From the NCBI RefSeq assembly GCF_003018235.1, contig NZ_CP027437.1: DNA of 64,000 nt. One strand, written 5' to 3'. Under the pieces are notes generated by a model. The model was given only the letters and a program-made list of their open reading frames with translations, had not been told where the DNA came from and did no database searches. Position 1 is the stretch's first letter; each line of letters starts with the position of its first letter. Positions 989-20,167 of the stretch are shown one piece after another. This DNA comes from Escherichia coli (lineage in GTDB: Bacteria > Pseudomonadota > Gammaproteobacteria > Enterobacterales > Enterobacteriaceae). The position numbers and the translations under genes were made by a program.

Positions 989-1040
989 ATCTACTCCAAT
1001 GAAAAAGCTACCGGTTGATAACCGATGGCTTTGATTGTTC

Positions 1041-1235: not shown

Positions 1236-1605
1236 TTTGGTGTCTCCTTTGCTTTCGAGACACCAAAATCCCATCACGACACGTTTACCGCCACAAACAT
1301 TATTGCAGGCACCCATTGAATACCTGCGGGACTGATAAACACAGCCTCCTCCATACGTAGTGAAACCATTTTCATATCTCCAGTAATGAATTCTTTGAAG
1401 AGTCGCAATCAATACGACTCACTAATGGGGAGGCATGTCCAACGCGTTGGACGAGTTGCCTACTTGATTTAGATGACACTTTAGAAGGACAGAATGCCTT
1501 CCTCACTCAAATAACATCAATTAAGGAGGTTCAACATGCTTCGTTCCAAAAGTCAGTTGACTGTAATTATTACTACGTCACCTTATGCCGAAGACCTTTT
1601 CCGCT

Positions 1606-1881
1606 TCACTTTGAGCCTGATTCACTTCTACCTGACCGGCTCGCCTCTATCCTTCTGATCCCCGCTTTATCCAGATTGCACTGCCCTAGCGCCGACAACA
1701 GACTGACATTCAAATCTAGACTACCCGCATAAGTCAGCGGTTCAGAAATGGCTGGTTGCGGGGTTTCAGCGGTCAGACTCGCCGGTAACGGTATAGCCGG
1801 AACTGGCACGTAAACTGTCCGCGAACTTTCGCAACCGGTCAGCAGCGGCAGCAGGCACAGGGCGTACAGCACAATCATCAT
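1606..1881 (-). CDS. Rz1-like outer-membrane spanin lipoprotein (overlapping Rz in another frame)
   Basis: Internal start MMIVLYALCLLPLLTGC gives signal peptide plus lipobox LTGC, followed by a proline-rich segment; overlaps 3' end of the Rz-like gene out of frame. Confidence 0.55.
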   Translation of the reverse strand: MMIVLYALCLLPLLTGCESSRTVYVPVPAIPLPASLTAETPQPAISEPLTYAGSLDLNVSLLSALGQCNLDKAGIRRIEASRSGRSESGSK

Positions 1882-2158: not shown

Positions 2159-2618
2159 TAACCACCCCGCCAGCTTCTTTGAATTTGGCAATCAGACTAT
2201 CGATCTTGTGTTCATACTGACCGTAGCCAGCACCGGGCAATGAGGCCCAAATATTGCTGCAACGATCAATAGCCTGACGAATATCACCCCGATCAATCAG
2301 CGGCAGCGCGCCGCGTTCTTTAATCTGCTGTAACGCCACCGCATCCTGGCTTTTCGGGGAGAAATCTTTCAGTCCAAGCTGTTTACGGTAGGCGTCCCAC
2401 CATTTCGACAGCAGTTGATAACGCCCGGCGGCGGTGGATTTCAGTTTCGGGTTAAGCGTAACCAGCTTACGTGGATGATCGGAGTAATCAGTAAGCAGTT
2501 CGCCACCAACGATAACGTCATAACCATGATTTCTGGTCTTCTGCCATCCGTTATCAGTTCCTTCTGACCACGCCAGCATATCGAGGAAGGCTTTACGCTG
2601 AGGATTAAGGTTTTGCAT
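2142..2618 (-). CDS. R: endolysin, lambda R-type lytic transglycosylase
   Basis: 158-aa product near-identical over most of its length to recalled lambda R (QRKAFLDMLAWSEGTDNG...GDIRQAIDRCSNIWASLPGAGYGQ). Confidence 0.9.
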   Translation of the reverse strand: MQNLNPQRKAFLDMLAWSEGTDNGWQKTRNHGYDVIVGGELLTDYSDHPRKLVTLNPKLKSTAAGRYQLLSKWWDAYRKQLGLKDFSPKSQDAVALQQIKERGALPLIDRGDIRQAIDRCSNIWASLPGAGYGQYEHKIDSLIAKFKEAGGVVNETSL

Positions 2619-2922
2619 TTTTCACCCCTGTCAGTCGTTCCCAGAAGTAAGTCAGCGCAACTGAACCCATTGCACCGCTGATCCCTGCTGTGGCGAGAAT
2701 CATGTAAATGCTAAATCCGCTTTCGATACTTATCAGGCCACCAATAACACCGGTAAAACCCGATACCACTATCTGAGCCAGAGCATTAATCCAGCTCCAT
2801 GTTGCTTTGCTCTGCTTCACATCAATCAGGTAACGGACAAGCCCGCCCCAGCACGCGAAGATCAGCAGAACGAGCCAGGACATCCCGGCAATGCTCTCTT
2901 TTTCGTGCATATGAATAGCCAT
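2605..2922 (-). CDS. holin (not lambda S family)
   Basis: About 105 aa with hydrophobic TM segments, dual-Met N-terminus MAIHMHEK, immediately upstream of and overlapping the endolysin gene. Confidence 0.55.
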   Translation of the reverse strand: MAIHMHEKESIAGMSWLVLLIFACWGGLVRYLIDVKQSKATWSWINALAQIVVSGFTGVIGGLISIESGFSIYMILATAGISGAMGSVALTYFWERLTGVKNAKP

Positions 2923-3908: not shown

Positions 3909-4598
3909 TCAGTTCGGTTTTGCAAGACTTACGTGCAAACTTGTCGCCTTTTGTTGTGAACGTGATCGCGTTACTGAGATAAGCGCACCGCTATCGAGTC
4001 GCATAAAGCAGCTACGCATTGCCAACCAGTGAGGCAGGTATGTCTCTGTCCAGGTGGATTTCGCCACGCCAACCAGTTCCGCCAGCTTCTGGTATTCGTA
4101 GGCATCTTTCCCGACCAACCCTGCTTTGACATCCTGCGCTGCCAGCCATATCAGCTTCTTCAGGCGCTCCATGGTCTTGCCTGCCACCCTCTTCGCGCCG
4201 AGATACCCCCTGAATTCAGACCACGCCCACTGGGTGATCGCCACCTGGTATTCAAAGCTGATGTTTTCACTGTAACTCCACAGCAACCACGCTTTCTGAT
4301 GTTCTTCGAGAGACAGAACCGCGCGGCGCCATGAAGATGTTGAGAACTCAACCTGGCTGACCAGTGCAATGGATGAACCTTTTGCGTACGACTGCTTACC
4401 GGAAATCGGCGGATTATCCAGCGTAATCATCTTGCCCGTTACCTCATCCAGAATGCGCGGCTTCTTTCGTTTATATGTACCAGTATCAAATTGTGCATGC
4501 TCCAGCCAGGCTTCAAGCTGGCCTTTCGTTGCTCCGCTCAAATCAGCAGTAGCCACAATGAGTTGCTCGCGGACATACTGTAAATATTGGGTATTCAT
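3909..4598 (-). CDS. putative late-gene antiterminator Q-like protein
   Basis: 229-aa ORF occupying the Q position (downstream of rusA-ylcG, upstream of lysis genes); start overlaps ylcG stop (ATGA); family assignment tentative. Confidence 0.45.
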   Translation of the reverse strand: MNTQYLQYVREQLIVATADLSGATKGQLEAWLEHAQFDTGTYKRKKPRILDEVTGKMITLDNPPISGKQSYAKGSSIALVSQVEFSTSSWRRAVLSLEEHQKAWLLWSYSENISFEYQVAITQWAWSEFRGYLGAKRVAGKTMERLKKLIWLAAQDVKAGLVGKDAYEYQKLAELVGVAKSTWTETYLPHWLAMRSCFMRLDSGALISVTRSRSQQKATSLHVSLAKPN

Positions 4599-4735
4599 GC
4601 GGCAGCTCCTTTCAGTGTTTTGGCGTAATTCTTCAGTATCCGGTAATCGGTCAAAACAGAACCGGGGAAACGATATAAGCGCAGGCGCATCCAGCGGTGG
4701 CGAAGACGTTCTGCCATATAAGACTCAAACATCAT
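4595..4735 (-). CDS. ylcG: small DUF3950-type protein YlcG
   Basis: 46-codon ORF ([46 protein letters not shown]) coupled by ATGA overlaps to rusA and Q; matches recalled K-12 YlcG. Confidence 0.6.
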
Positions 4736-5094
4736 TCATTCCCCAGTTCGGTGATGGTCAGCTCCAGCTTCCCACCTTTGGTAACGGGCATCTTCACAAC
4801 ACGGTAATCAACGACCTGAACATCATCCAGCCAGAAACCTGCTTTGGTGAGTGCGTCAAAAGCGGCTTTTTGCAGATTATCCAGGTCACGGCGACGGCGA
4901 TCCGGCATGTGGCACTCAATACGGATTTTCACAGGCATAGCCAGGCCGATATCCAGCATTGCGTTTTTAATGATTTGGGCGACGTTATCGCGGTATGCCT
5001 GCCCCTCTGCGCTGACGTGCGTGCGCCCGCGATTATGGCGGTAATAGCGATTATTGCTCGGAGGCCAGGGTAATGTGATGCTGTAGGTATTCAC
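4732..5094 (-). CDS. rusA: RusA Holliday junction resolvase
   Basis: 120-aa product near-identical to recalled K-12 RusA ([38 protein letters not shown]...). Confidence 0.9.
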
Positions 5095-5381
5095 GCCTTA
5101 ATAACCCCCTCTTTCAGCCAGATAACCTGTGTTCTCGCCATACCTTCCAGCGCGCATTCTTTTGCATATCCAGCGTCAACAAAATGCGTGCGACGGTCGA
5201 TCTCATCGTGACAGGCAGAACATGCAATGGTGGCAATCAGGTCTGGCGGTTTGGTACCGGTGCCACACAATCCAGCCAGCCGGATATGTGCCAGTACAGA
5301 CGTTTCAGGGTTGCCATTACATATGCCAGGGATTCTTACCTGGCATTCCCGACCACGCGCTGCTTTTCTCAAATCAGCCAT
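5091..5381 (-). CDS. ybcO: DUF1364 prophage protein YbcO
   Basis: Internal ATG ([19 protein letters not shown]...) gives 96-aa product matching recalled K-12 YbcO. Confidence 0.8.
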
Positions 5382-5544
5382 GATTCCTCCTTGCTGCCAG
5401 TCGCAACCATTTTTTATCAACCAGGCTGGCGGTATACCCTAGCAGCGTTGGTATTTCGGATGGCTTCAGCTCAGGCTTACGCTTACGACGATTTGGTACT
5501 CTGTAGATGTGTCCGTTCATGACCCGAATAAGCGGTGTAGTCAT
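5374..5544 (-). CDS. ninE: NinE
   Basis: 56-aa product [28 protein letters not shown]... matches recalled K-12 NinE; TAATG overlap with ybcN. Confidence 0.8.
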   Translation of the reverse strand: MTTPLIRVMNGHIYRVPNRRKRKPELKPSEIPTLLGYTASLVDKKWLRLAARRNHG

Positions 5545-5999
5545 TACGCCTCCTGCTTGTCGCGCAGCAGCTGGAACTCGCAGCTCTGTGGAATAGTCAG
5601 GTGGCAACCAATATTCATCGCCCAGGCTTCAACCTTACACAGGAAGACATACATCTCTCCGGTATCAAGATCGGAGGTATGGCGTAACGACTGGATAGTG
5701 GTGATATCACCGGTTACGACATCAACCAGGTCTTTGGTTTCATAACCGAGATATGTGTGTTTGAGAGCATCTTTTACCCAAGCTGGAGTGGCGAACGTTT
5801 TACCCCTGCTGATGAGGTATTCACTGATTTCGCTGTACCACATGTGGCTGAGTGCATTCTGGGAAAGACTGCGTCTCTCGCGCCACGGTTTAAGCACCAT
5901 GCGAAAGCATTTGCCGTCCTCCAGATAAGGCTGGATCTGCCGACCGATAGCGGTGAAGTTACCGCGATGCAATTTGATACCATCTTGTGGGAGGTTCAC
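5544..5999 (-). CDS. ybcN: DUF1367 prophage protein YbcN
   Basis: 151-aa product matches recalled K-12 YbcN over full length. Confidence 0.85.
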
Positions 6000-6191
6000 G
6001 CTTCACCTCCGCAGAGATCAAACGCTGGATGCAAAATATCGCAGGTGCATTTCTGCATCTGTGAATGGAGAAGAGAGGTTGGATTGTATGTGCGCATAAA
6101 CGTCCCCGTTTAGCGCAGAAGTCACCGGAGGAGTTCAAACTCTGGTGACTTAATTATGGCAAGTTGATTGTTGAAAATCAATTTAGTGGAT

Positions 6192-7583: not shown

Positions 7584-9110
7584 TCAAAAATAAACCTCAC
7601 CATCAACCATATATTTGAGAGTACTTATCGCCTGCCGGGCGGATATTGTTTTCATTAAAGGATAGTGTTTAAAAACAATGCCATTCATAAAATAGATATC
7701 ACAGGTTTTATTATCTGTATTGATTATGATTTTTTCGAATGTTTTATAGGCAAGTGTACGACATAGCTCTCGCCCATTTTTACTGGTTAAGTCAATAGCA
7801 TGAAAATCACCAAGTGAGCTCACCGCTTTACTCTTCAAAGTTTTTAATGATACAGAAGCCCTTCGTAATTCCTTATCTAATACTCTGATTTTTTCTGCTA
7901 TAGCGGTAACTTCAGGCGCAACAGATAATGCAGCAATTAAATTATTAATTTTCATATGGAGCTCAATAATTCTCAACTCTAAAGTTTCATTAGCATCTTT
8001 CTTGTTTTCAACTGGTTGGATTTTACTACAATTAAAAAGCAACTCATTAATGATATTATAATCAACCAAATCTCTCTTTATTGATGGCCTGCCACATCGA
8101 TGCAGTCTTCTCATCGGACAAACATAATAGCCATGCAAACTTCCAGATACCGCATGAACAATCATGGTATTACCACAAGCCTCGCACTTCATAACTGTTC
8201 GAAGTAGATTTATCAACATAGGATTTTTGCTACTATTGCTAATACCAAAAGGTGCCAACCGAATTTCCTGCACAGCGTAAAACAAATCATCTGATATGAC
8301 TCTGGGATAATAGCCAGCGATTTCACTTATTCCTTTACCTCTTGCACGATATGAAGGTACGCATATACCTATCAGAGCTTTATTCGCTAATAATTTTTCA
8401 ATTACAGAAGGCCCCCATGCACTTTCTTTTCCTGAGAAATTCTTTACAGCATGATCATTTAAATACTTGGCTATTGCATTCAATGAGCGCCTTTCCATCC
8501 TGAGTTTAAAAATTAGCTCAATAGTTTTCACCCTGTCGGGGTCTGGAACAAAAGCCGTTCTTTTGTCATCTAAGGAGAGCCATCTCGGACAAGACGCCGT
8601 CATAATCGTACCTGATTCCAGTGCATCCTGCCGTTTTTTCTTCCATGATAATTTAACCCGACTTGACTTTATCTCGCTTTCTTCATTTGCCCTTTGTGCT
8701 ATAAGTATGGCTTTTATTAATGAATATGGCTCATTCAAAGAGTCAATATTATAGACTGTATTGTCGCAAAGAGTTATAACATCAATACCGTGATTCAAAA
8801 TCAATTTCAGACGTTCAATCGCTTCACCGACTTTTTCTCTTGAAAGTCTGTCCAGACTTTCAACTAACAATGTAGTTCCTGGCAATATATAACCATGCTC
8901 TATAGCATCTAAAAATTCCGAAAAAGCTCCTGATTGTGCATGCTTTCCTTTGAATGCACTTAATCCTAAATCTTCATATGTTATGGTATCAAGATAATAA
9001 TCACTATTTACCTTTAACCATTCAGCAATAAGTCTTCTCTGTCGGTTTAATGAGTCGCCAGACATCTGACCTGGTGATGAAAATCGCATATATGCTATGG
9101 CTTTTTTCAT
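7584..9110 (-). CDS. ybcK: large serine recombinase YbcK
   Basis: 508 aa; N-terminal resolvase-type catalytic domain (YMRFSSPGQ...SLNRQ), recombinase domain and Cys-rich zinc ribbon; length and position match K-12 DLP12 ybcK. Confidence 0.85.
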   Translation of the reverse strand: MKKAIAYMRFSSPGQMSGDSLNRQRRLIAEWLKVNSDYYLDTITYEDLGLSAFKGKHAQSGAFSEFLDAIEHGYILPGTTLLVESLDRLSREKVGEAIERLKLILNHGIDVITLCDNTVYNIDSLNEPYSLIKAILIAQRANEESEIKSSRVKLSWKKKRQDALESGTIMTASCPRWLSLDDKRTAFVPDPDRVKTIELIFKLRMERRSLNAIAKYLNDHAVKNFSGKESAWGPSVIEKLLANKALIGICVPSYRARGKGISEIAGYYPRVISDDLFYAVQEIRLAPFGISNSSKNPMLINLLRTVMKCEACGNTMIVHAVSGSLHGYYVCPMRRLHRCGRPSIKRDLVDYNIINELLFNCSKIQPVENKKDANETLELRIIELHMKINNLIAALSVAPEVTAIAEKIRVLDKELRRASVSLKTLKSKAVSSLGDFHAIDLTSKNGRELCRTLAYKTFEKIIINTDNKTCDIYFMNGIVFKHYPLMKTISARQAISTLKYMVDGEVYF

Positions 9111-9364
9111 GGTGACACCTGCTAACGTATGCTTTTATAAACCTTAGTGGCGAGATATAATTTTTGTTTAATTTTTATTTAAAAAGACAATTAAGGTCAC
9201 ATTATCTTGAATATACAACAATAATCGTATTGCAATTTTCTTACGCCATAATCTTGAAAGCACAAAAGAATACATAAAAAATAAAGACATTAACAAAAAG
9301 CATAAAACGAGGCTCATATAAATATAAGAGCCTCCATATTTTAGTCGTTTAGAAACAAATTATT

Positions 9365-9697
9365 TTAATGTGGTGTGCTTCGTGACAATAAATTAATAAC
9401 CAACACACCGGCACAAATCAACATCATGCCTATAATGGCTGGCAGGTCCAGCCGTTGGCCGAAAAATCCCCATGACAGTAAGCTAATCAGGACAATACCG
9501 ACTCCTGACCAGATAGCATAAGCAATCCCTGTAGGAATATAAGCCAGCGTCTGAGCTAATAACCAGAATGATGCACAATAACAAATAATTGTACCAACAG
9601 ATGGCCATAACCGTGTAAAACCTTCTGAAAACTTCATTAAGGTTGTACCAATGACCTCTGCAAGTATTGCACCACCAAGATAAATATAAGGATTCAT
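9365..9697 (-). CDS. emrE: small multidrug resistance efflux transporter EmrE
   Basis: 110-aa product from internal ATG (MNPYIYLGGAILAEVIGTTLMKFSEGF...) matches recalled EmrE; four TM segments. Confidence 0.9.
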   Translation of the reverse strand: MNPYIYLGGAILAEVIGTTLMKFSEGFTRLWPSVGTIICYCASFWLLAQTLAYIPTGIAYAIWSGVGIVLISLLSWGFFGQRLDLPAIIGMMLICAGVLVINLLSRSTPH

Positions 9698-9764
9698 AGC
9701 ATATTCTTTCCTGTTCAAACTGGAGAGAATTGTACTACAGTTTGAACTCAACTCACCTGTTTCA

Positions 9765-10067
9765 TCATTGTGTACCCATTGATGTTCTTTTATATACCCT
9801 CAATACCCGTTTCATCGCGGCACTCTGGCGACACTCCTTAAAAATCAGATTCGTGCTCACCTTTCCTTCCCGTTCTTCTCTGGTAGCGAACCGGTAATAC
9901 ACCGTTCGCCAGACCTTACCATCAACGACCAGGATTCCTGCCCGCGCCATTTTAGCCGCAGCCTGATTTATGCTGGTTACGGTTGCGCCTGTTACCGCGG
10001 CAACGTCCTGTGCACAGAAGCTCTTATGCGTCCCCAGGTAATGAATAATTGCCTCTTTGCCCGTCAT
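9765..10067 (-). CDS. ren: Ren (Rex-exclusion relief protein)
   Basis: 100-aa product closely matches recalled lambda Ren (MTGKEAIIHYLGTH...FATREEREGK). Confidence 0.8.
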   Translation of the reverse strand: MTGKEAIIHYLGTHKSFCAQDVAAVTGATVTSINQAAAKMARAGILVVDGKVWRTVYYRFATREEREGKVSTNLIFKECRQSAAMKRVLRVYKRTSMGTQ

Positions 10068-10765
10068 ACACTTGCTCCTTTCAGTCCGAACTTAGCTTTG
10101 ATTTCTGCGATCTTCGCCAGAGCCTGTGCACGATTTAGAGGTCTACCGCCCATGACAGGAAGTTGTTTTACTGGTTCAGGTATCGCCTCACCACGGTTAA
10201 TTCGCGCGGTCATACAGGACAGTTCATCGGCAGCCTTGCGCCGTAATTCCGCGTCAGTCAACGCATTGGCCCGCATGTTCTGATACAGGTTGGTAACCAG
10301 CCAGTAGTGCGCGTTTGATTTCCACGGATAAGACTCTGCATCCGGATACAGACCACGCTTCCGGCAATACTCGTAAACCATATCAACCAGCTCGCTGACG
10401 TTTGGCAGCCCGGCGGTAACGGATGCTTCTTCCCGGCACCATGCAACAAACTGCCCGGGTGATGGCAGAAATGGTCTATTCTGCCGACGGGCAACACGCA
10501 TTCCGGCGCTCACCTGTTCCATCGTGGTGATCCCGTTTTCCCGGAAAGCCAGAACCCACTGGCGGCGGATTTCGTTCAGTTCGTTCTGGTCACGATTAGC
10601 CAGGCTCGCCGGGAAAGTTGCCAGTAACTGGCTGAATACACCGTTGATTATCTGCGCTACCTGCTGTACCTGCGGCTTTTCGTCGTACTGTTCCGGCATG
10701 TTGTTGGCGATCCGACGCATCTGCTCACGGTCAAAGTTAATCATCTGTGCGGCGATGTTTTTCAT
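10064..10765 (-). CDS. P: replication protein P (DnaB loader)
   Basis: 233-aa product near-identical to recalled lambda P. Confidence 0.9.
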   Translation of the reverse strand: MKNIAAQMINFDREQMRRIANNMPEQYDEKPQVQQVAQIINGVFSQLLATFPASLANRDQNELNEIRRQWVLAFRENGITTMEQVSAGMRVARRQNRPFLPSPGQFVAWCREEASVTAGLPNVSELVDMVYEYCRKRGLYPDAESYPWKSNAHYWLVTNLYQNMRANALTDAELRRKAADELSCMTARINRGEAIPEPVKQLPVMGGRPLNRAQALAKIAEIKAKFGLKGASV

Positions 10766-11781
10766 AGATCCACCCCGTAAATCCAGTCTGTGTTTGTCAG
10801 GTCGAGTTTTGGTTTGCTAGCTGTCACGCCTGCCTGTTGCTTGTTACGGTTGATTTCGAGTTGGGTCCACTTGTCGCGGAGTTTGGCCGGACTTAGCACG
10901 TTACCGGACCAGAAGTTGTCCTGGCATGCCCAGCGGAACAGCACGCACATGTCGCGGTGGTTACGTCCGTCACGTTCACGCATCAGGCGGATATCGTTAG
11001 CCCACCCTGCAAAATTCGGTTTTCTGGCTGATGGCGCGATGGTCTTCACCATGTCAAACATCCACTCTGCGGCGGTCAGGTCTTCTGCTGTCCCCCACTT
11101 GCTGCCGCTCTGAATTGCAGCATCCGGTTTCACCACAGGAAGATCGTTTTCTGGTTGGTCAGAGGATTCGCCAGAATTCTCGGACGAAAAAGGTTTTATA
11201 TTGTCTTTTGTTAGTTTGTCTTTTGTGTTTACCTGATTCGGGTAAACGCCTTTACCTGATTTGGGTAAACTTTTTTTACCTGATTCAGGTAAATTTACCT
11301 CTTTCAGGTAAACTTTATTTTTCTTACCTGATTCGGGTAATGTTGACCATTCACTGACCACATTATTAATGCCGGTATTCCGCCCGCTCTGAATAAAAAT
11401 CCCACGCTTTACCAGAACACTTTTTGCAGCAGAACACTTGTGCGGCAATATCCCGGTTAATTCGGAAAGTTGCTCGTTGCTAACCCAATCCAGTTTTTTA
11501 TTAAAGCCATATGTTTTGCGCATGACAGCCAGAAAGACCAGAAGCTGGTGCTGTGTTAATCCGGCCAGCATCACAGCTTCCAGCAACTCATTTGCAATGC
11601 GCGTATAACCATCATCGAGATCTGCCACGCGCGGCTCCTTTTGTGCCGCATCCGGCACTGGAAAATTGAATATCTCAGCAGTGTTTGCCATAATTCCTCC
11701 CGCAATGAGTGTGTTACGATTTGCACCTGAAAGTCGGTTCTGTTCCAGCAGACCGGCTTTCGCCATTTCTGAACCTGTCAT
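10762..11781 (-). CDS. O: replication initiator O-like protein (iteron-binding)
   Basis: 339-aa ORF upstream of P containing an internal array of 17-bp iterons; N-terminal region resembles lambda O (ADLDDGY...); C-terminal acidic linker. Confidence 0.8.
   Translation of the reverse strand: MTGSEMAKAGLLEQNRLSGANRNTLIAGGIMANTAEIFNFPVPDAAQKEPRVADLDDGYTRIANELLEAVMLAGLTQHQLLVFLAVMRKTYGFNKKLDWVSNEQLSELTGILPHKCSAAKSVLVKRGIFIQSGRNTGINNVVSEWSTLPESGKKNKVYLKEVNLPESGKKSLPKSGKGVYPNQVNTKDKLTKDNIKPFSSENSGESSDQPENDLPVVKPDAAIQSGSKWGTAEDLTAAEWMFDMVKTIAPSARKPNFAGWANDIRLMRERDGRNHRDMCVLFRWACQDNFWSGNVLSPAKLRDKWTQLEINRNKQQAGVTASKPKLDLTNTDWIYGVDL
11180..11340. repeat. phage replication origin: five 17-bp iterons (TTACC-N7-GGTAA) plus adjacent AT-rich tract, inside O
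   Basis: Repeats TTACCTGATTCGGGTAA (x2), TTACCTGATTTGGGTAA, TTACCTGATTCAGGTAA, TTACCTCTTTCAGGTAA at roughly 18-29 bp spacing; AT-rich block on the O-downstream side. Confidence 0.75.
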
Positions 11782-12317
11782 ATTGCCCCCAGCATGGTGG
11801 TGACCATTGCCATCAGTGGACCAGCCAGATCCGGGTCCACTCGAAACATCGACACAATGCCTTCACTCATCTCCTTCAGTTTCTGGTGGCGTGGTGCGTT
11901 GAGAATGACCGCCTGCTTTGCCTCACTGAGTTCCTTTTCCATTTCAGCCAGCCGAGCCATGAAGCTATCCTGCTCAACTAGGTAACCGCGATATTCCAGC
12001 GGTAGTACCGCCAGAATTGCCGGGGTCAGTTCACGCACGTTATTTCTGTATTTTTCAGAATCGAATTTGTTATCGAGGAAGCGGAACAGCTTCTGGCGTG
12101 CACGGCTGACATCATCAGGGAAATCGATGGTGCCGCCGCCCTGCTCCCGATACTCATTCACAATGAGTGCGGCAACGACATCCTGATTATCTACAGCCGA
12201 CCAGGCGCGGACGGCATCACGGATTTTTTCGTGGCCTGGAGCTTGTTTTGTTTGAGAACGATTTATCACCGCAGTCGGGCTAAATCCGCTAGTCTGTTGG
12301 TATGTAAGTGGTTGCAT
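11778..12317 (-). CDS. cII-position regulatory protein (possibly YdaT-like)
   Basis: 179-aa ORF between cro-like gene and O, ATGA overlap with O start; family not recognised with confidence. Confidence 0.35.
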   Translation of the reverse strand: MQPLTYQQTSGFSPTAVINRSQTKQAPGHEKIRDAVRAWSAVDNQDVVAALIVNEYREQGGGTIDFPDDVSRARQKLFRFLDNKFDSEKYRNNVRELTPAILAVLPLEYRGYLVEQDSFMARLAEMEKELSEAKQAVILNAPRHQKLKEMSEGIVSMFRVDPDLAGPLMAMVTTMLGAI

Positions 12318-12386
12318 AATTGACTCCTTTAGTTTGAATTGACTGTTAAGTTGATTGCTTATTGTTAAAGAGCGTGAAATGGAAAT

Positions 12387-12617
12387 TTAAGCTGCGTTCT
12401 TTTCAGTGTGTGGAAACAACTTCGGAAGATCCGGGCGAATCTGGTATGCCTTCACTACTCCACCAGTAGCCGTAACAATGCTGCCGACATGTTCAGGGGA
12501 TACCTTTGCTTTGTTGTGAAGCCACTTATAGACGGCCTGCTGTGAAACTTCGCAGGCAGCGCCTAGTTTCTTTTGTGAACCAACGATATTGATCGCTGTT
12601 TTGATGGCTGGGTTCAT
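12387..12617 (-). CDS. cro: Cro-like HTH regulator
   Basis: 76-aa protein with HTH (LGAACEVSQQAVYKWL), divergent from cI, GGAGG 5 nt upstream of ATG. Confidence 0.6.
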   Translation of the reverse strand: MNPAIKTAINIVGSQKKLGAACEVSQQAVYKWLHNKAKVSPEHVGSIVTATGGVVKAYQIRPDLPKLFPHTEKNAA

Positions 12618-12721
12618 AACAACCTCCGTGGTTAATTTGAATCAAGATTAAAACCATGGTTGTTTTTAGTCAACAACCATTTTCGTTTGATGAAATAAAA
12701 CCTTGGTTGTACATTTGGACT
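12618..12721. promoter_or_regulatory. OR-like operator/promoter region between cro and cI
   Basis: Three palindromic sites built on AACCA/TGGTT half-sites (AACCATGGTT; ACAACCATT; AACCTTGGTTGT) in a 100-bp divergent intergenic region. Confidence 0.45.
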
Positions 12722-13411
12722 ATGAAAACAACACTCTCAGAAAGACTTAAAGAAGCCAGATTAGCGCGAGGCCTTACACAAAAGGCGCTTGGGGATTTGG
12801 TCGGGGTTAGCCAAGCAGCTATTCAGAAAATCGAAACAGGGAAAGCTAACCAAACAACTAAAATCGTGGAGATCGCGAACGCTTTGGGTGTGCGCGCAGA
12901 ATGGTTATCTTCTGGCGTTGGAAATATGTCAGACAGTACAGTGCAACCAATACAAACAACTGTCAGCCATTCCAAATACTTTAAGATTGACGTTCTTGAT
13001 ATCGAAGTGAGTGCCGGGCCGGGAGTCATCAACCGTGAGTTTGTAGAAGTTCTACGCTCGGTTGAGTACTCGTTTGACGATGCTCGTCACATGTTCGATG
13101 GTAGGAAGGCAGAAAATATCCGCATCATTAACGTACGCGGTGACAGCATGTCAGGAACGATTGAACCTGGTGATCTTCTATTCGTTGATATCACGGTTAA
13201 ATCTTTCGACGGTGATGGTATCTATGCGTTTCTGTACGACGACACAGCCCATGTAAAGCGCCTGCAAATGATGAAGGATAAGCTGCTGGTTATCTCTGAT
13301 AACAAAAGCTACTCACCGTGGGACCCGATCGAGAAAGATGAGATGAACCGGGTATTTATCTTCGGGAAAGTTATTGGGAGCATGCCGCAGACGTATAGGA
13401 AGCATGGATAG
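12722..13411 (+). CDS. cI: CI-type prophage repressor (HTH plus S24 LexA-like peptidase domain)
   Basis: N-terminal HTH (LTQKALGDLVGVSQAAIQKIE), Ala-Gly cleavage site, GDSM serine motif and downstream Lys; ATG with almost no leader. Confidence 0.8.
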   Translation: MKTTLSERLKEARLARGLTQKALGDLVGVSQAAIQKIETGKANQTTKIVEIANALGVRAEWLSSGVGNMSDSTVQPIQTTVSHSKYFKIDVLDIEVSAGPGVINREFVEVLRSVEYSFDDARHMFDGRKAENIRIINVRGDSMSGTIEPGDLLFVDITVKSFDGDGIYAFLYDDTAHVKRLQMMKDKLLVISDNKSYSPWDPIEKDEMNRVFIFGKVIGSMPQTYRKHG

Positions 13412-13491
13412 TACCAATTAAAAATTATCAACCGGGCATTGTGCTCATTCAGTAAAACAACTTAATTATTCATTTTAGAATGGAGAACTTA

Positions 13492-14553
13492 ATGGATACT
13501 TTAAAATATGAGAAATTCTCTGATTTTGATCACAATGACCCATTTTTTGACTCTTTAAAAAAAGATTATAAAGAGTTTCCTCTTTGGTTAGAAAAAAAAG
13601 CCAGAGAAGGAGAATCAGCTTATGTGCTCTATGATGACAAGCATAAAATCGAAGGTTTTATGTATCTAAAAGAAAATGATGATGCAAATGACATTAATCC
13701 AGCGCTCCCACCAGGACGTCATCTAAAGATAGGAACATTCAAATTTGAATCTAAAGGCACCCTTCGCGGACAACGATTTCTAAAAAAAGCGTTTGACCAT
13801 GCATTTTCATCAAAATCTGATGATATTTATGTTACTGTTTTCGACAAACACGTCCATCTAATAAAACTTTTCCAAACGTACGGATTTTACATTCATGGTG
13901 AAAAAGAAACACATAACGGGAAAGAGTTTGTATATGCGAGGTCTTTGCATGAGCCTTATGGTGATATTTTATTAGATTACCCTCGAATAATGACATCAAG
14001 GGCCAACAAATATTTACTGGCGATTTATCCCGAATATCACACTAGACTATTCCCTGATTCAAAACTTGTAAATGAATCACCAGATATTGTCAAAGATATA
14101 TCCCATGCTAACAGCATTCATAAAATTTACATATGTGGAATGCGTTCTGTGATGGGAATGAAAAGAGGAGATATCATTGTCATCTATAGAACCGGAGACA
14201 AAAAAGGGCCAGCTCGCTATCGTTCTGTAGCCAGTACATTATGTGTAGTTGAGAGCGTAAAAAATATTTCTGAATTTTTAAGCGAAGATAGTTTTGTAGA
14301 CTATTGTATTCGTTTTAGCGTATTTTCTGAAGATGAACTCAGAAAAATCTATAAAGAACGTCGATACCCTTTCATTATAAGATTCACATACAATCTGTCT
14401 TTGCCAAAGAGACCCAATCGTGCTATTTTAATAGATCATGTGGGGCTAAATGGTTCGCGTGCATTCCGATGGAGTCACTTTAAACTCACAAATGAGCAGT
14501 TCTTAAAGATCATCGAGTTAGGCAAGATAAATGAAAGTTTTATTATCCATTAA
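13492..14553 (+). CDS. hypothetical protein, first gene of rexAB-position operon
   Basis: 353 aa from ATG with GGAG 6 nt upstream (track ORF starts 13480); AT-rich; no family recognised; C-terminal half has PUA-like-looking motifs (GDIIVIY). Confidence 0.4.
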   Translation: MDTLKYEKFSDFDHNDPFFDSLKKDYKEFPLWLEKKAREGESAYVLYDDKHKIEGFMYLKENDDANDINPALPPGRHLKIGTFKFESKGTLRGQRFLKKAFDHAFSSKSDDIYVTVFDKHVHLIKLFQTYGFYIHGEKETHNGKEFVYARSLHEPYGDILLDYPRIMTSRANKYLLAIYPEYHTRLFPDSKLVNESPDIVKDISHANSIHKIYICGMRSVMGMKRGDIIVIYRTGDKKGPARYRSVASTLCVVESVKNISEFLSEDSFVDYCIRFSVFSEDELRKIYKERRYPFIIRFTYNLSLPKRPNRAILIDHVGLNGSRAFRWSHFKLTNEQFLKIIELGKINESFIIH

Positions 14554-14908
14554 GCCTGAGTTTGCAGAAAAAATATTGAACGGAACAAAGCGGTTCGAGT
14601 TTCGTAAAGGTATATTCAAAAATCCGCAAATTAGCACCGTTGTTATTTATGCCACGATGCCATTAGGTAAAGTTGTTGGTCAATTCCGTATTGAATCAAT
14701 ACTAAGTGACGAACCGGAATCTCTTTGGAAAAAGACGGAAAAACACGCAGGTATTTCTAAGCAATTTTATGACTCATATTATTCAGGTAGAGAAAAGGCC
14801 TACGCAATAAAAATTGGTGAAGTGGAAAGATATAAAGAACCAATTCCTATCTCTGCTCTAGGTAGTAATATTAAGCCACCACAATCATATCTTTACCTAC
14901 CTGCGTAA
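14531..14908 (+). CDS. ASCH/PUA-like domain protein
   Basis: 125 aa; MKVLLSIKPEFAEKILNGTKRFEFRK N-terminus resembles ASCH-domain consensus; overlaps upstream gene by 23 nt (translational coupling). Confidence 0.5.
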   Translation: MKVLLSIKPEFAEKILNGTKRFEFRKGIFKNPQISTVVIYATMPLGKVVGQFRIESILSDEPESLWKKTEKHAGISKQFYDSYYSGREKAYAIKIGEVERYKEPIPISALGSNIKPPQSYLYLPA

Positions 14909-14912
14909 GAAT

Positions 14913-14939
14913 CCCGGCCACCGTGCCGGGTTTTCTTTT
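14913..14939 (+). terminator. rho-independent terminator ending the cI operon
   Basis: Hairpin CCCGGCCACCGTGCCGGG followed by TTTTCTTTT, 5 nt after the ASCH gene stop. Confidence 0.7.
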
Positions 14940-15049
14940 ATCCCCTCCCCTCATCACATATACCGTTCAAAAAACCACCACAATCTCCCTTCAGTTATCG
15001 CTATGCGATGCAAGTCACAAAATAAACCCATCCTAAATACAACCAGTTA

Positions 15050-15112
15050 CATCTAAAACAACCAATAAAACAACTTTTGTTGTTGACGATAAAACAACTA
15101 TAGTTTTAAATA
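15050..15112 (+). promoter_or_regulatory. pL/OL-like promoter with operator repeats
   Basis: TTGACG-N17-TTAAAT overlapped by ACAACCA and AACAACTTTTGTTGTT palindromes sharing half-sites with the OR region. Confidence 0.45.
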
Positions 15113-15184
15113 AATTCATCGCAACAACACAACGATACGGCAACCACCTGATTCACCGTTGCGATGACCGCTTAGATCCGCAGC

Positions 15185-15595
15185 TTGAATTTCAGCAGGC
15201 TCCGGGGAGTGCGAGGGGTGAAGCGGACGCGTGAACGTCGGTGTGACCAGCTGAAATCAACTCAACACTTCATACCTCAGTCGCTTCAACGAGGCGGCTT
15301 AGTTATGACAACCGGCGGCCATCCACCGCCTGAATACGCGCAGAAGTCTCCATATGTTCAGCAGCCCAGCTTACGGGCAGGAGTTTTTATGGTTCATCAA
15401 CATTATGGAACGCAGACCGTTAATCGAGGTGCGGTCATGCCAGGAATGCTGGTCAAACACAAAGATGGTACCTGGACTGCATCAGCTAATTTACGCGGAC
15501 GGCTTTATCTGCATCGCGGCATCGAGCGCACTTATACCCGTGATTTGCTCGTGGAAGTTTTTCTCGACGGACGCGGTAACGGCCTGAATCACTAA
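15185..15595 (+). CDS. hypothetical early-left protein (Arg-rich N-terminus; true start uncertain)
   Basis: 136-aa ORF between pL-like promoter and gam; Arg-rich N-terminus reminiscent of N-type ARM but no boxA/boxB nut site found. Confidence 0.25.
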
Positions 15596-15670
15596 TCCCC
15601 TTTCCTGTTTTCCTAATCAGCCTGGCATTTCGCGGGCGATATTTTCACAGCCATTTTCAGGAGGTCAGCC

Positions 15671-15967
15671 ATGAACGCTTATTACATTCAGGATCGTCTT
15701 GAGGCTCAGAGCTGGGCGCGTCACTACCAGCAGATCGCCCGTGAAGAGAAAGAGGCAGAACTGGCAGACGACATGGAAAAAGGCCTGCCCCAGCACCTGT
15801 TTGAATCGCTATGCATCGATCATTTGCAACGCCACGGGGCCAGCAAAAAAGCCATTACCCGTGCGTTTGATGACGATGTTGAGTTTCAGGAGCGCATGGC
15901 AGAACACATCCAGTACATGGTTGAAACCATTGCTCACCACCAGGTTGATATTGATTCAGAGGTATAA
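15671..15967 (+). CDS. gam: Gam (RecBCD inhibitor), short form
   Basis: 98-aa product near-identical to recalled lambda GamS ([21 protein letters not shown]...). Confidence 0.85.
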
Positions 15968-15972
15968 AACGG

Positions 15973-16758
15973 ATGAGTACAGCACTCGCAACGCTGGCAG
16001 GGAAGCTGGCTGAACGTGTCGGCATGGATTCTGTCGACCCACAGGAACTGATCACCACTCTTCGCCAGACGGCATTTAAAGGTGATGCCAGCGATGCGCA
16101 GTTCATCGCATTACTGATCGTTGCCAACCAGTACGGCCTTAATCCATGGACGAAAGAAATTTACGCCTTTCCTGATAAGCAGAATGGCATCGTTCCGGTG
16201 GTGGGCGTTGATGGCTGGTCCCGCATCATCAATGAAAACCAGCAGTTTGATGGCATGGACTTTGAGCAGGACAACGAATCCTGTACATGCCGGATTTACC
16301 GCAAGGACCGCAATCATCCGATCTGCGTTACCGAGTGGATGGATGAATGCCGCCGCGAACCATTCAAAACCCGCGAAGGCAGAGAAATTACGGGGCCGTG
16401 GCAGTCGCATCCCAAACGGATGTTACGGCATAAAGCCATGATTCAGTGTGCCCGTCTGGCCTTCGGATTTGCTGGTATCTATGACAAGGATGAAGCCGAG
16501 CGCATTGTCGAAAATACTGCATACACTGCAGAACGTCAGCCGGAACGCGACATCACTCCGGTTAACGATGAAACCATGCAGGAGATTAACACTCTGCTGA
16601 TCGCCCTGGATAAAACATGGGATGACGACTTATTGCCGCTCTGTTCCCAGATATTTCGCCGCGACATTCGTGCATCGTCAGAACTGACACAGGCCGAAGC
16701 AGTGAAAGCTCTTGGATTCCTGAAACAGAAAGCCACTGAGCAGAAGGTGGCAGCATGA
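15973..16758 (+). CDS. bet: Bet (Red-beta single-strand annealing protein)
   Basis: 261-aa product essentially identical to recalled lambda Bet. Confidence 0.95.
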
Positions 16759-17435
16759 CACCGTACATTATCCTGCAGCGTACCGGGATCGACGTGAGAG
16801 CTGTCGAACAGGGGGATGATGCATGGCACAAATTACGGCTCGGCGTCATCACCGCTTCAGAAGTTCACAACGTGATAGCAAAGCCCCGCTCAGGAAAGAA
16901 GTGGCCTGACATGAAAATGTCCTACTTCCACACCCTGCTGGCTGAGGTTTGCACCGGTGTGGCTCCGGAAGTTAATGCTAAGGCGCTGGCCTGGGGAAAA
17001 CAGTACGAGAACGACGCCAGAACCCTGTTTGAATTCACTTCCGGCGTGAATGTTACTGAATCCCCGATCATCTATCGCGACGAAAGTATGCGCACCGCCT
17101 GCTCTCCAGATGGTTTATGCAGTGACGGCAACGGCCTTGAACTGAAATGCCCGTTTACCTCCCGGGATTTCATGAAATTCCGGCTCGGTGGTTTTGAGGC
17201 AATAAAATCGGCTTACATGGCCCAGGTGCAGTACAGCATGTGGGTGACGCGAAAAGATGCCTGGTACTTTGCCAACTATGACCCGCGCATGAAGCGTGAA
17301 GGCCTGCATTATGTCGTGATTGAGCGGGATGAAAAGTACATAGCGAGTTTTGACGAGATGGTGCCGGAGTTCATCGAAAAAATGGACGAGGCACTGGCTG
17401 AAATTGGTTTTGTATTTGGGGAGCAATGGCGATGA
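16755..17435 (+). CDS. exo: Exo (Red-alpha 5'-3' exonuclease)
   Basis: 226-aa product near-identical to recalled lambda Exo. Confidence 0.95.
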
Positions 17436-17614
17436 CGCATCCTCACGATAATATCCGGGTAGGCGCGATCGCTTTCGTCTACTCCGTTACAAAGCGAGGC
17501 TGGGTATTTCCCGGCCTTTCTGTTATCAGAAATCCACTGAAAGCACAGCGGCTGGCTGAGAAGATAAATAATAAACGGGAGGCGGTATGCACAAAGCATC
17601 TCCTGTTGAGTTAA
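17426..17614 (+). CDS. lambda orf60a-like small protein
   Basis: 62-aa ORF directly after exo, position and size as in lambda. Confidence 0.35.
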
Positions 17615-17778
17615 GAACGAGTATTGAGATGGCACATAGCCTTGCTCAAATTGGAGTCAGGTTTGTGCCAATACCAGTAGAAACAGACGAAGAATTTCAT
17701 ACGTTAGCCACATCCCTTTCACAAAAGCTGGAAATGATGGTGGCGAAAGCAGAAGCAGATGAGAGAGACCAGGTATGA
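17587..17778 (+). CDS. lambda orf63-like protein
   Basis: 63-aa product [23 protein letters not shown]... matches recalled lambda Orf63. Confidence 0.5.
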   Translation: MHKASPVELRTSIEMAHSLAQIGVRFVPIPVETDEEFHTLATSLSQKLEMMVAKAEADERDQV

Positions 17779-17858
17779 CAACCACTGAATGCATTTTTCT
17801 GGCAGCGGGCTTCATATTCTGTGTGCTTATGCTTGCCGACATGGGGCTTGTTCAATGA
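17775..17858 (+). CDS. 27-aa hydrophobic micro-ORF (MTTTECIFLAAGFIFCVLMLADMGLVQ)
   Basis: ATGA-coupled to orf63 stop and to the following ORF start; single TM-like segment. Confidence 0.3.
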   Translation: MTTTECIFLAAGFIFCVLMLADMGLVQ

Positions 17859-18070
17859 CACCTCAGCAAGAAAACGCCCTTCGCAGCATTGCCCGTCAGG
17901 CTAATTCTGAAATCAAAAAAGCCAGACAGCATTTTCCGGATAAAAACGTCGATGACATTTGCCGTAGCGTACTAAAGAAGCACCGCGAAACGGTAACGCT
18001 GATGGGATTCACACCGACTCATTTAAGCCTGGCGATCGGCATGTTGAACGGCGTCTTTAAGGAACGGTGA
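17855..18070 (+). CDS. lambda orf61-like protein
   Basis: 71-aa product from ATG coupled to upstream micro-ORF (track ORF starts 17789). Confidence 0.35.
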   Translation: MTPQQENALRSIARQANSEIKKARQHFPDKNVDDICRSVLKKHRETVTLMGFTPTHLSLAIGMLNGVFKER

Positions 18071-18168
18071 ACATGAAAAGCAAAATCATCAGGGAGCTAC
18101 AGGCTCCTTTTTTATTATTCGCATTTACCCTCAAGCGTATTAACCAACAATTCAGGGATTAATGAAAG

Positions 18169-18387
18169 ATGGCAGACATCATTGATTCAGCATCAGAAAT
18201 CGAAGAATTACAGCGCAATACAGCAATAAAAATGCGTCGTCTGAACTACCAGACTGTATCCGCAACTCATTGTTGTGAGTGTGGCGATCCGATAGATGAG
18301 CGAAGACGCCTGGCTGTTCAGGGTTGTCGGACTTGTGCTAGTTGCCAGGAGGAGATCGAACTTAAGAACAAACAATGGGGACTGTGA
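18169..18387 (+). CDS. TraR/DksA-family C4 zinc-finger protein (lambda Orf73-like)
   Basis: 72 aa with CCECGDPIDERRRLAVQGCRTCASCQ (C4 finger typical of TraR/DksA family). Confidence 0.7.
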   Translation: MADIIDSASEIEELQRNTAIKMRRLNYQTVSATHCCECGDPIDERRRLAVQGCRTCASCQEEIELKNKQWGL

Positions 18388-18434
18388 TGGCCTCAAAGCA
18401 GCAAATTTCAACATCGTCCAACTGAGGTGTAAAA

Positions 18435-18713
18435 ATGTTCAGAATCATTTTTCCTAACACCTGGTACGTCGACCACCACGGCACTCCCTGCAAAATCCTG
18501 CGTTCTACCCACAACAAAGTTCACTACATCCGAAAAGGCAGAACATGTATCGCCAGCATGTTCCGCTTTAATCATGACTTTGAACCTGTGAATAAAGCTG
18601 ATGCAGATCGGATAGCAGAAGAGATCGAAACGGCAGAACACATTAAGAAGTTACGTGACATGCGTTCAAAAAGCAGAGGTAACCATGGAATCATACAGCC
18701 TCACACTCGATGA
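18435..18713 (+). CDS. hypothetical protein (Ea8.5 position)
   Basis: 92-aa ORF between orf73-like gene and xis; no motif recognised. Confidence 0.3.
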   Translation: MFRIIFPNTWYVDHHGTPCKILRSTHNKVHYIRKGRTCIASMFRFNHDFEPVNKADADRIAEEIETAEHIKKLRDMRSKSRGNHGIIQPHTR

Positions 18714-19056
18714 GGCCTGTCAGTTTCTTAAGATATCCAGACCAACCGCCACCAACTGGATACGAACAGGCCGCCTACAGGCAACACGTAAAGATCCAAC
18801 CAAGTCAAAATCTCCTTACCTCACAACACGGCAAGCCTGCATTGCGGCGCTTCAGTCTCCGCTGCATACTGTCCAGGTGAGCGCGGGTGATGGCATAACA
18901 GAGGAAAGAAAATGTCACTCTTCCGCAGAAATGAAATATGGTATGCCTCGTATTCGCTCCCGGGCGGGAAACGAATTAAGGAATCTCTTGGCACAAAGGA
19001 CAAGCGGCAAGCTCAGGAGTTGCACGACAAGCGAAAAGCAGAACTCTGGCGAGTAG
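18685..19056 (+). CDS. xis: putative excisionase
   Basis: ATG with GAGGT RBS within GTG-initiated track ORF 18655..19056; winged-helix-like N-terminus ([26 protein letters not shown]); 3' end overlaps int in another frame. Confidence 0.4.
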
Positions 19057-20075
19057 AAAAGCTAGGGGATTTACCTGATGTCACTTTTGAAGAGGCCTGC
19101 CTAAGATGGCTTGAGGAAAAAGCTGATAAAAAATCTCTCGATTCAGATAAAAGCCGGATTGAGTTCTGGCTTGAACATTTTGAGGGTATAAGGCTTAAAG
19201 ATATCTCGGAGGCAAAGATTTACTCTGCTGTAAGCAGAATGCATAACAGAAAGACGAAAGAAATATGGAAACAGAAAGTTCAGGCCGCCATCAGGAAAGG
19301 TAAAGAACCGCCTGTTTATGAACCAAAGCCAGTATCAACTCAGACAAAGGCAAAGCATCTTGCCATGATAAAGGCCATTCTCCGTGCTGCAGAACGCGAC
19401 TGGAAGTGGCTGGAAAAAGCGCCTGTCATCAAGATACCAGCGGTCAGAAACAAGCGAGTCAGATGGCTGGAAAAGGAGGAAGCAAAACGCCTTATTGATG
19501 AGTGCCCCGAACCACTGAAATCTGTCGTCAAGTTTGCGCTGGCAACTGGTCTGAGAAAGTCGAACATCATAAATCTGGAATGGCAACAAATCGACATGCA
19601 GCGACGAGTTGCCTGGGTGAATCCAGAAGAGAGCAAATCAAACCGCGCCATTGGTGTGGCGCTGAACGATACCGCCTGTAAAGTGTTGCGTGATCAAATA
19701 GGCAAGCATCACAAATGGGTGTTTGTACATACCAAGGCGGCTAAGCGAGCAGATGGAACATCAACGCCTGCGGTCAGGAAGATGCGCATCGACAGCAAGA
19801 CATCATGGCTATCAGCTTGTCGTCGTGCAGGAATTGAAGATTTCCGTTTCCATGACCTCAGACACACCTGGGCAAGCTGGCTGATTCAGTCAGGCGTCCC
19901 ATTATCAGTGCTTCAGGAAATGGGCGGATGGGAGTCCATAGAAATGGTTCGTAGGTATGCTCACCTTGCGCCTAATCATTTGACAGAGCATGCGAGGAAA
20001 ATAGACGACATTTTTGGTGATAATGTCCCAAATATGTCCCACTCTGGAATTATGGAGGATATAAAGAAGGCGTAA
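18912..20075 (+). CDS. intD: tyrosine integrase IntD
   Basis: 387-aa product with C-terminal catalytic R...HDLRHT...Y motifs; matches K-12 DLP12 IntD length and position next to argU. Confidence 0.9.
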
Positions 20076-20090
20076 CTGATTGAATTGTAA

Positions 20091-20167
20091 TGGCGCGCCC
20101 TGCAGGATTCGAACCTGCGGCCCACGACTTAGAAGGTCGTTGCTCTATCCAACTGAGCTAAGGGCGC
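20091..20167 (-). tRNA. argU: tRNA-Arg (anticodon UCU), argU; prophage attachment site
   Basis: Reverse complement reads GCGCCCTTAGCTCAGTTGGATAGAGCAACGACCTTCTAAGTCGTGGGCCGCAGGTTCGAATCCTGCAGGGCGCGCCA, a cloverleaf with UCU anticodon. Confidence 0.9.

Follow-up and report, generated by a model that had tools for sequence, protein, structure and literature searches.

The window analyzed here, a stretch of 64,000 nucleotides of Escherichia coli DNA, ends inside a prophage whose replication genes O and P lie next to each other. The features of this region are collected in Table 1. The start codon of P, which encodes a protein of 233 aa, overlaps the stop codon of O (ATGA). Upstream of O are genes for a YdaT-type “cII” protein (179 aa), a YdaS-type Cro and an S24 repressor, and downstream of O and P follow a ren-like gene, emrE, a gene for a YbcK-type serine recombinase, and a Q gene. 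The integrase gene (18912–20075) abuts tRNA-Arg(tct) (20091–20167, argU). The element is therefore a DLP12-like prophage at argU, and it has the gene layout of phage Perceval of the genus Bievrevirus. The cryptic prophage DLP12 of K-12, which sits at argU as well, also carries emrE and ybcK. The same immunity/replication module was found in another prophage, located at icd.

At the O start codon there is a pO-like promoter (TTGAAT-17-CATAAT, with an extended TG), together with an oop-like hairpin RNA that is antisense to the 3′ end of the cII-like gene (fold energy −24.1 kcal/mol, z = −2.8). Conserved counterparts of the promoter block are present in the annotated oop region of phage 434, in SEN34, and in the Klebsiella phage GZ7. 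The oop-like element belongs to the same replication/immunity module; its function there is presumed.

Table 1. Features of the O and P region, with positions in the window. Iterons are numbered in O-sense order.
Feature	Position	Strand or O-sense sequence	Remarks
P gene, helicase loader, putative partner of the O C-terminal domain	10064..10765	minus	Pfam PF06992 Phage_lambda_P, E 1.1e-61
O gene, replication initiator	10762..11691	minus	309 aa from ATG 11691; Pfam PF04492, phrog_277
Coding region of the C-terminal, presumably P-interacting half of O	10765..11158	minus	shared with lambda, 434, 933W
Imperfect palindrome TCCGAGAATTC-TGGC-GAATCCTCTGA	11159..11184		right of the A+T tract; common to lambda-type origins
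A+T-rich tract, presumed unwinding element	11185..11228	ACACAAAAGACAAACTAACAAAAGACAATATAAAACCTTTTTCG	73% A+T
Iteron 5 (adjoins the A+T-rich tract)	11229..11245	TTACCCGAATCAGGTAA	second frame, encodes V-Y-P-N-Q-V
Iteron 4	11252..11268	TTACCCAAATCAGGTAA	encodes L-P-K-S-G-K
Iteron 3	11276..11292	TTACCTGAATCAGGTAA	perfect 19-bp palindrome including flanking T/A; encodes L-P-E-S-G-K
Iteron 2	11295..11311	TTACCTGAAAGAGGTAA	different frame, encodes V-Y-L-K-E-V
Iteron 1 (distal, extra)	11324..11340	TTACCCGAATCAGGTAA	encodes L-P-E-S-G-K
Coding region of the predicted N-terminal winged-helix origin-binding domain (aa 21–115)	11347..11631	minus	Pfam match and AlphaFold2
pO-like promoter and hairpin RNA, oop-like	11666..11765	plus	promoter scan, RNA fold

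The open frame of O runs upstream to an ATG at 11781, and public records annotate the corresponding 339-aa form. The O homologues all begin M-x-N-T-A at the position equivalent to 11691, and GGAGG precedes ATG 11691; the annotated form is thus probably 30 residues too long. The protein matches Pfam PF04492 (Phage_rep_O) over aa 21–115 (E 9.9e-34) and phrog_277, “replication initiation O-like” (E 1e-163), while phrog_2357 covers aa 187–308. An AlphaFold2 model of residues 1–125, of moderate overall confidence (mean pLDDT 76; 89–95 over aa 71–110; low past aa 115), has helices at 28–42, 47–59, 72–79 and 83–95 and a beta hairpin at 99–108, the fold of a predicted winged helix. Foldseek matched this model best to winged helices of the CRP/FNR, MarR-type and DnaD-N kinds in the PDB, at E-values that were weak (3e-3 or higher) and probabilities near 1; searching the PDB with the O sequence gave no match. 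The putative recognition helix is aa 83–95, HKCSAAKSVLVKR.

A pattern scan located five exact copies of TTACC-N7-GGTAA at 11229–11340 on the plus strand, a cluster of 112 bp, and no other exact copy in the whole 64-kb window. The repeat finder placed them in one direct-repeat family with start-to-start intervals of 23, 24, 19, and 29 bp and detected dyad symmetry in every unit; the unit at 11275–11293 is a perfect 9+1+9 palindrome, TTTACCTGA-A-TCAGGTAAA. With at most one mismatch allowed, the window contains nine matches, four of them scattered one-mismatch sites elsewhere in the window, compared with 1.24 ± 1.14 expected from dinucleotide-preserving shuffles (n = 100). As 0 of the 100 shuffles reached nine matches, a chance origin of the repeats was rejected. 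An Rfam scan of 9000–14000 returned sub-threshold noise only, including a match to rliD over the iteron block (15.9 bits vs. a gathering score of 50) that we dismissed as an artefact of composition or palindromy.

Read in the sense of O, the iterons occupy nt 352–463 of the 930-nt gene, with the N-terminal DNA-binding domain encoded before them and the C-terminal domain after them. The four nearest the A+T-rich tract have center spacings of 19, 24, and 23 bp, and iteron 1 lies 29 bp further out. This distal iteron is also the most variable copy among relatives: it reads GGTAC in Klebsiella phages and is missing from four-iteron variants. The A+T-rich tract adjoins the last iteron on its promoter-distal side, begins with a ACACAAAAGAC motif, and is richer in A+T than either the iteron block (65%) or the whole O gene (52%). 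To its right is an imperfect palindrome, which is a part of ori-lambda as well; the equivalent in lambda and 434 is TCAGAGAATTCTGGCGAATCCTCTGA.

A preliminary description of this DNA had listed five palindromic 17-bp TTACC-N7-GGTAA iterons spaced at about 18–29 bp, with an adjacent AT-rich tract, inside the O coding sequence at 11180–11340. This is confirmed: there are five exact dyad sites, the tract at 11185–11228 adjoins them, and the minus-strand open reading frame (10762–11781) that contains them matches Phage_rep_O. The upper end of the spacing is right, but the true minimum is 19 bp. The span fits the iterons and the A+T tract, but its left limit needs to be moved to about 11159 to take in the conserved imperfect palindrome.

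What the iteron block encodes is a linker of low complexity, rich in Lys, Pro and Gly, that joins two folded domains of O. The repeats might be nothing but a tandem peptide repeat (LPESGK-like) that arose by slippage in this flexible linker and has no function as a DNA site. The low complexity, the low model confidence past aa 115, and a copy number that varies from 3 to 9 among relatives are what such a repeat would lead one to expect, but we give this explanation next to no chance. The five iterons are translated in two frames, as LPESGK, VYLKEV, LPESGK, LPKSGK, and VYPNQV, and the peptides from the two frames are unrelated, which makes the iterons a repeat of DNA rather than of peptide. Every unit is also palindromic, a property without meaning at the protein level. 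Within the half-sites, positions where a change would be silent (A in TTA, T in GGT) do not vary, whereas the third position of the spacer Pro codon does and the background synonymous identity is ~50%. At the equivalent position in lambda, moreover, are sites for which O binding has been proven biochemically (PMC7466680).

How far the DNA itself is conserved can be quantified with Klebsiella phages whose O N-terminal domains are 79–84% identical to that of the window. In amino acid-identical codons, their third positions are 47–57% identical to the window. The half-sites, by comparison, are identical at 48–49 of 50 positions, the intra-iteron spacers at 28–29 of 35, and the inter-iteron DNA at 15–18 of 27, and all five sites are found at the same O-gene coordinates. 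These phages, which comprise four distinct sequences only, were retrieved purely by protein similarity and hence without site-search bias. When IMG/VR was searched for pairs of adjacent sites, 120 loci came up, about 100 of them O genes with N-terminal domains 68–100% identical; nearly all have the spacing 29, 19, 24, 23, with a C-terminal domain that is either of the lambda-P type or unrelated. Since those loci were selected for two exact sites, their half-site conservation is partly ascertainment, and because the search pattern biases this sample our conservation argument rests on the protein-retrieved Klebsiella set. The preliminary description had made its assignment depend on the repeats being conserved in homologous O genes, and homologues with N-terminal domains 68–100% identical do keep both half-sites and spacing. 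Three independent lines (the two reading frames, the palindromy, and the half-site conservation in Klebsiella phages) thus indicate that the iterons act as a DNA-level signal.

Such a signal could in principle serve something other than replication. Tandem palindromes of 17–19 bp are also typical of operators, and the module carries an unusual YdaS/YdaT-type cro/cII pair, so that the sites might be bound by a repressor, a CII/YdaT-like regulator or a host factor, or might serve in packaging or recombination and be located in O by coincidence. We consider this highly improbable, as the presence of the iterons goes together with that of the O N-terminal domain rather than with the immunity genes. 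The Klebsiella phages GZ7, 6 LV-2017 and ST11-VIM1phi8.2 keep the same five sites at identical O coordinates, yet they carry a CII-annotated gene of ~66–73 aa rather than the 179-aa YdaT-type gene, along with a DnaC-type loader. There is no other exact site in the 64-kb window, near promoters for example, and the geometry of the cluster is superimposable on that of ori-lambda.

The region from about 11159 to 11340 is, with high probability, the replication origin of this lambdoid, DLP12-like prophage, embedded in O as in lambda. Its tandem repeats have dyad symmetry, lie mid-gene in O, are conserved as DNA, show a lambda-like geometry, and co-vary with the O N-terminal domain. O binding, unwinding, and helicase loading at this origin are proposed by homology with lambda, whose replication biology was taken from the literature for comparison (PMC7466680; PMC4488673). 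O dimers would bind the five TTACC-N7-GGTAA iterons through the N-terminal winged helix, with one half-site per monomer, and an O-some would form on the four iterons that lie closest to the A+T tract at regular spacing, with iteron 1, the distal copy, serving as a further binding site. The strained O-some would then open the adjacent A+T-rich tract, and the lambda-type C-terminal half of O would recruit P bound to the host DnaB, at which point replication would start. The link from O to P would accordingly be of the lambda type.

An origin of this form may of course have lost its function in a cryptic prophage, and the location at argU together with emrE and ybcK, as in DLP12, is in keeping with decay. 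We regard this as unlikely, with a slim chance of being correct: neither O (309 aa) nor P (233 aa) is truncated, the five iterons are exact, and O is 100% identical to that of PhiR34_1 and PhiR68_2 and 97–98% identical to those of about a dozen sequenced phages. The hosts on record are E. coli K-12 MG1655 and ECOR13 for PhiR34_1 and PhiR68_2, and E. coli for the others.

An origin of the type found in the window is widespread. Of 5426 complete E. coli genomes, 2296 (42%) hold at least 80% of the segment comprising the N-terminal domain and the iterons, nearly all at ≥95% identity, and the O protein cluster has 7825 members. The origin is 98–100% identical in 15 phage records and 81–84% identical in six Klebsiella phage records; none of these 21 records has a rep_origin annotation at the iterons, and a full-text search found no paper in which the exact iteron sequence is printed. 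We therefore see it as an ordinary lambdoid origin of a non-lambda class that is very common, much sequenced and, as far as we found, functionally uncharacterized. As an element it is of a known kind; this example is at most new and possibly has already been described as that of phage 82. In any case, the iterons and origin boundaries are now defined for an O allele that is common in E. coli genomes and phages.

To place the window among known origins, we compared the O-sense origin regions of 434, a 933W-type Stx phage, ES18, P22, HK97, SEN34, phi80, PhiR12_2, mEp043, four Klebsiella phages, and a Providencia phage; the iterons are annotated in 434, six iterons are annotated in the 933W-type phage, and P22 has an annotated rep_origin. 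All of them carry tandem repeats with dyad symmetry at the equivalent location in O, with half-sites of six types: TCCCTC-N5-GAGGGA (lambda, 434, 21, ES18, and 933W), TTCCCG-N4-CGGGAA (phi80), GTCAC-N7-GTGAC (PhiR12_2 and mEp043), TTAGC-N7-GCTAA (HK97 and SEN34), TTACC-N5-GGTAA (P22 and the Providencia phage), and TTACC-N7-GGTAA (the window and the Klebsiella phages). Of the phages that the preliminary description had named for comparison of iterons and O, phi80 is different, and 21 is lambda-type, the same as lambda itself.

Thirteen O genes fall into seven iteron classes, and class membership tracks the N-terminal domain rather than the C-terminal domain or the helicase-loader partner. In ES18, an N-terminal domain of lambda type is joined to a different C-terminus and goes with lambda iterons; mEp043 and PhiR12_2 agree in their N-terminal domain and their GTCAC iterons but not in their C-termini; and GZ7 has the N-terminal domain and iterons of the window type together with a DnaC-type partner. 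The decamer LPHKCSAAKS, the stretch of the presumed recognition helix, is invariant in all sampled homologues with TTACC-N7-GGTAA iterons except L047 (LSHKCSAAKS), and it differs in the other iteron classes.

The O gene of the window is itself split along this line. Its first 170 residues are 41.5% identical to lambda O, whereas the DNA from the last iteron onward is 94–96% identical to lambda, 434, and 933W (query 541/554–1020, megablast). The megablast homology to lambda-type O genes begins at query 541–554, equivalent to window positions 11228–11241, which is where the last iteron meets the A+T tract. The window thus provides a clean natural example of modular exchange, with the recombination joint exactly at that junction. 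It has neither the TCCCTC-N5-GAGGGA iterons nor the lambda-type O N-terminus of the lambda specificity group, but it does have the lambda-type O C-terminal half followed by a Phage_lambda_P gene that define a lambda-type O–P module.

An O specificity distinct from that of lambda, as the preliminary description had proposed, is well supported by inference from these comparisons, in that half-sites and N-terminal domain are both non-lambda and co-vary across the 13 O genes. Because the iterons and the N-terminal domain form a matched non-lambda pair, the origin should fire with its own O and not with lambda O. A stronger proposal, for which we judge the chances to be evenly balanced, is that TTACC-N7-GGTAA iterons and the LPHKCSAAKS winged helix represent an experimentally uncharacterized specificity group that is orthogonal to lambda and is the commonest O/ori type of E. 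coli prophages. If this were true, the module would offer a ready-made orthogonal replicon of the lambda-dv type, and it could play a part when lambdoid prophages in one host interfere with each other at the level of replication.

Whether this type corresponds to that of a classical phage was pursued through phage 82, whose origin is said to have been the subject of work by Moore, Denniston and Blattner in 1981 (Gene 14:91). DNA and protein searches of the phage collection listed no ori record for phage 82, and the one phage 82 record present there was the nin-Q region, X92588. X92588 is 96.2% identical to window positions 4265–6169, and the records that it matches best are precisely the 15 from phages with the O allele of the window. 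The O/ori of the window may therefore be of the classical phage-82 type, although linkage to nin-Q is only suggestive because lambdoid genomes are mosaic. A literature search on phage 82, ori, and iterons found no description of the TTACC-N7-GGTAA class. The GTCAC-type origin of PhiR12_2 and mEp043 was also followed as a route to a named classical phage and led to none.

Ori-lambda, which consists of four 19-bp iterons and an A+T-rich region inside gene O, is among the known systems closest to the window. Ori-lambda is also annotated in phages 434 and 21. Both origins have dyad iterons in the middle of O, an A+T tract with ACACAAAAGA, an imperfect palindrome to the right, a P gene, and a pO/oop-like antisense promoter. 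The “lambda arrangement” of the preliminary description is borne out in the same respects: iterons mid-O, the A+T tract on the promoter-distal side, P as the next gene, and near-identical spacing. The differences are that the window has TTACC/GGTAA half-sites with a 7-bp center where lambda has TCCCTC/GAGGGA with a 5-bp center, that it has five iterons rather than four, and that its first interval is 19 bp as opposed to 20 bp.

The model for the fifth iteron may plausibly be found in the Stx phages 933W and P27, whose six lambda-type iterons include extra copies distal to the A+T tract, as in the window, and whose four proximal iterons likewise keep the lambda spacing. The extra iterons of Stx phages bind O weakly yet are needed for plasmid replication (PMC7466680). 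Unlike the window, which has one extra copy at 29 bp, these phages have iterons of the lambda sequence class and an O close to that of lambda.

For the O DNA-binding domain, the closest classical relative is P22, with gp18 65% identical over aa 19–115. The gene 18 origin of P22 and that of the Providencia phage PSTNGR2lys share the TTACC/GGTAA half-sites and the A+T tract with the window, with iterons spaced at 20, 24, and 23 bp. In contrast to the window, P22 has four copies with half-sites 5 bp apart (6 in some copies), its C-terminal domain differs, and a DnaB-type helicase (gene 12) takes the place of P as partner. With a spacer of 7 and not 5 bp, the window falls outside the P22 gene 18/ori specificity group: its half-sites are 2 bp further apart than in this nearest relative, and its O-some geometry would be lambda-like. 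HK97 and SEN34 share the 17-bp, 5+7+5 layout, the spacing, and the A+T tract, with half-sites that are one base off (TTAGC vs. TTACC). Their N-terminal domains are 41–61% identical, and the putative recognition helix begins T-H-(C/V) rather than H-K-C, a substitution that, speculatively, may account for the G/C difference between the half-sites.

What many of these origins have in common is a scaffold. The proximal four iterons have center spacings of 20, 24, and 23 bp in lambda/434, 933W, ES18, HK97, P22, and the Providencia phage, and in these same phages and the window the center of the last iteron is 8.5 bp before ACACAAAAGA. The ACACAAAAGAC...ACAAAAGA motif after the last iteron is kept in lambda/434, 933W, ES18, HK97, P22, GZ7, PhiR12_2, and mEp043, the exceptions being SEN34, with the one-base variant CCACAAAAGACAAAC, and the divergent phi80 (ACACCCAATACAAGAACAAGAA). 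The scaffold (19 or 20, 24, and 23 bp, then 8.5 bp) is therefore constant while the half-sites and their N5 or N7 separation change, which makes it a useful constraint for modeling how O dimers read DNA.

All homologues of O begin at the equivalent of ATG 11691 (M-x-N-T-A), a codon preceded here by a GGAGG Shine-Dalgarno sequence. The 339-aa form given in public records starts at ATG 11781 and overlaps the cII-like gene's stop codon; this annotation is probably wrong, i.e., too long. The protein collection contains both long and short O forms. Coordinates of the features discussed here are listed in the table.

Coordinates of features in the window and in related loci.
Feature	Location	Strand	Remarks
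nin region, ybcN-ninE-ybcO-rusA-ylcG, and start of Q	4265-6169		
ren-like gene, emrE, YbcK-type large serine recombinase	7584-10067		between P and nin region
Promoter-like site and hairpin	11666-11765	+	TTGAAT-17-CATAAT with extended TG
Extra stretch of 339-aa O	11692-11781	-	
YdaS-family (PF15943) and YdaT-family (PF06254) proteins	11778-12617	-	at cro and cII positions
357-aa ORF	13480-14553	+	directly after CI repressor gene, rexAB-like position
Integrase and tRNA-Arg(tct)	18912-20167		adjacent to each other
Iteron array, L047 (IMGVR_UViG_2910596823_000013)	2535-2713		nine iterons
Chimeric O gene, L138 (phage D2, OM475427)	811-1832		
Repressor/YdaS/YdaT/O/P module, L139 (E. coli 4/1-1, NZ_CP023844)	10281-19223		integrated beside icd

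The promoter-like site is located at the O start codon and directed antisense into the cII-like gene, and the hairpin that follows it has a predicted energy of -24.1 kcal/mol (z -2.8). The promoter block can be aligned to the oop region annotated in phage 434, and SEN34 and GZ7 also conserve it; the element is probably an oop-like antisense RNA.

One relative (L047) carries a two-iteron unit (29 + 19 bp) three times, followed by the usual 24- and 23-bp intervals, which is a natural iteron amplification. The O of phage D2 is of the window-type allele over residues 1-82, followed by lambda-type O sequence with lambda iterons; in-frame stop codons interrupt the gene, which carries two CDS annotations. 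This represents either recombination that left the N-terminal domain and origin mismatched, or a fault in the assembly. Initiator-like proteins of the IMG/VR loci L030, L035, L083/L089, and L105 have two to five tandem TTACC-N7-GGTAA sites within their genes, translating as LPxxG(K/N) repeats, and showed no BLAST similarity to the window O N-terminal domain. These sites represent either a far wider family with the same half-site, or convergence.

The proteins at the cro and cII positions belong to families that Pfam names "toxins"; in the window they are placed as lytic repressor and CII-like activator (phrog_163). The 357-aa ORF had no Pfam match, and matches PDC-M11A, a candidate defence protein in PADLOC (E 2e-133), as well as phrog_6345, a family labelled as of unknown function. 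It is likely an anti-phage gene carried by the prophage.

An identical repressor-to-P module occurs in a different prophage of E. coli 4/1-1 (L139), where ren-emrE-ybcK is replaced, downstream of P, by genes for an inverse autotransporter (4.3 kb) and an alpha/beta hydrolase. In the window prophage, emrE encodes an SMR efflux pump and the recombinase is 508 aa long. The nin region and start of Q share 96.2% identity with X92588, a phage 82 record whose best database matches are exactly the phages having this O allele. The window prophage looks intact and is related to the cryptic prophage DLP12; its layout is the same as that of phage Perceval.
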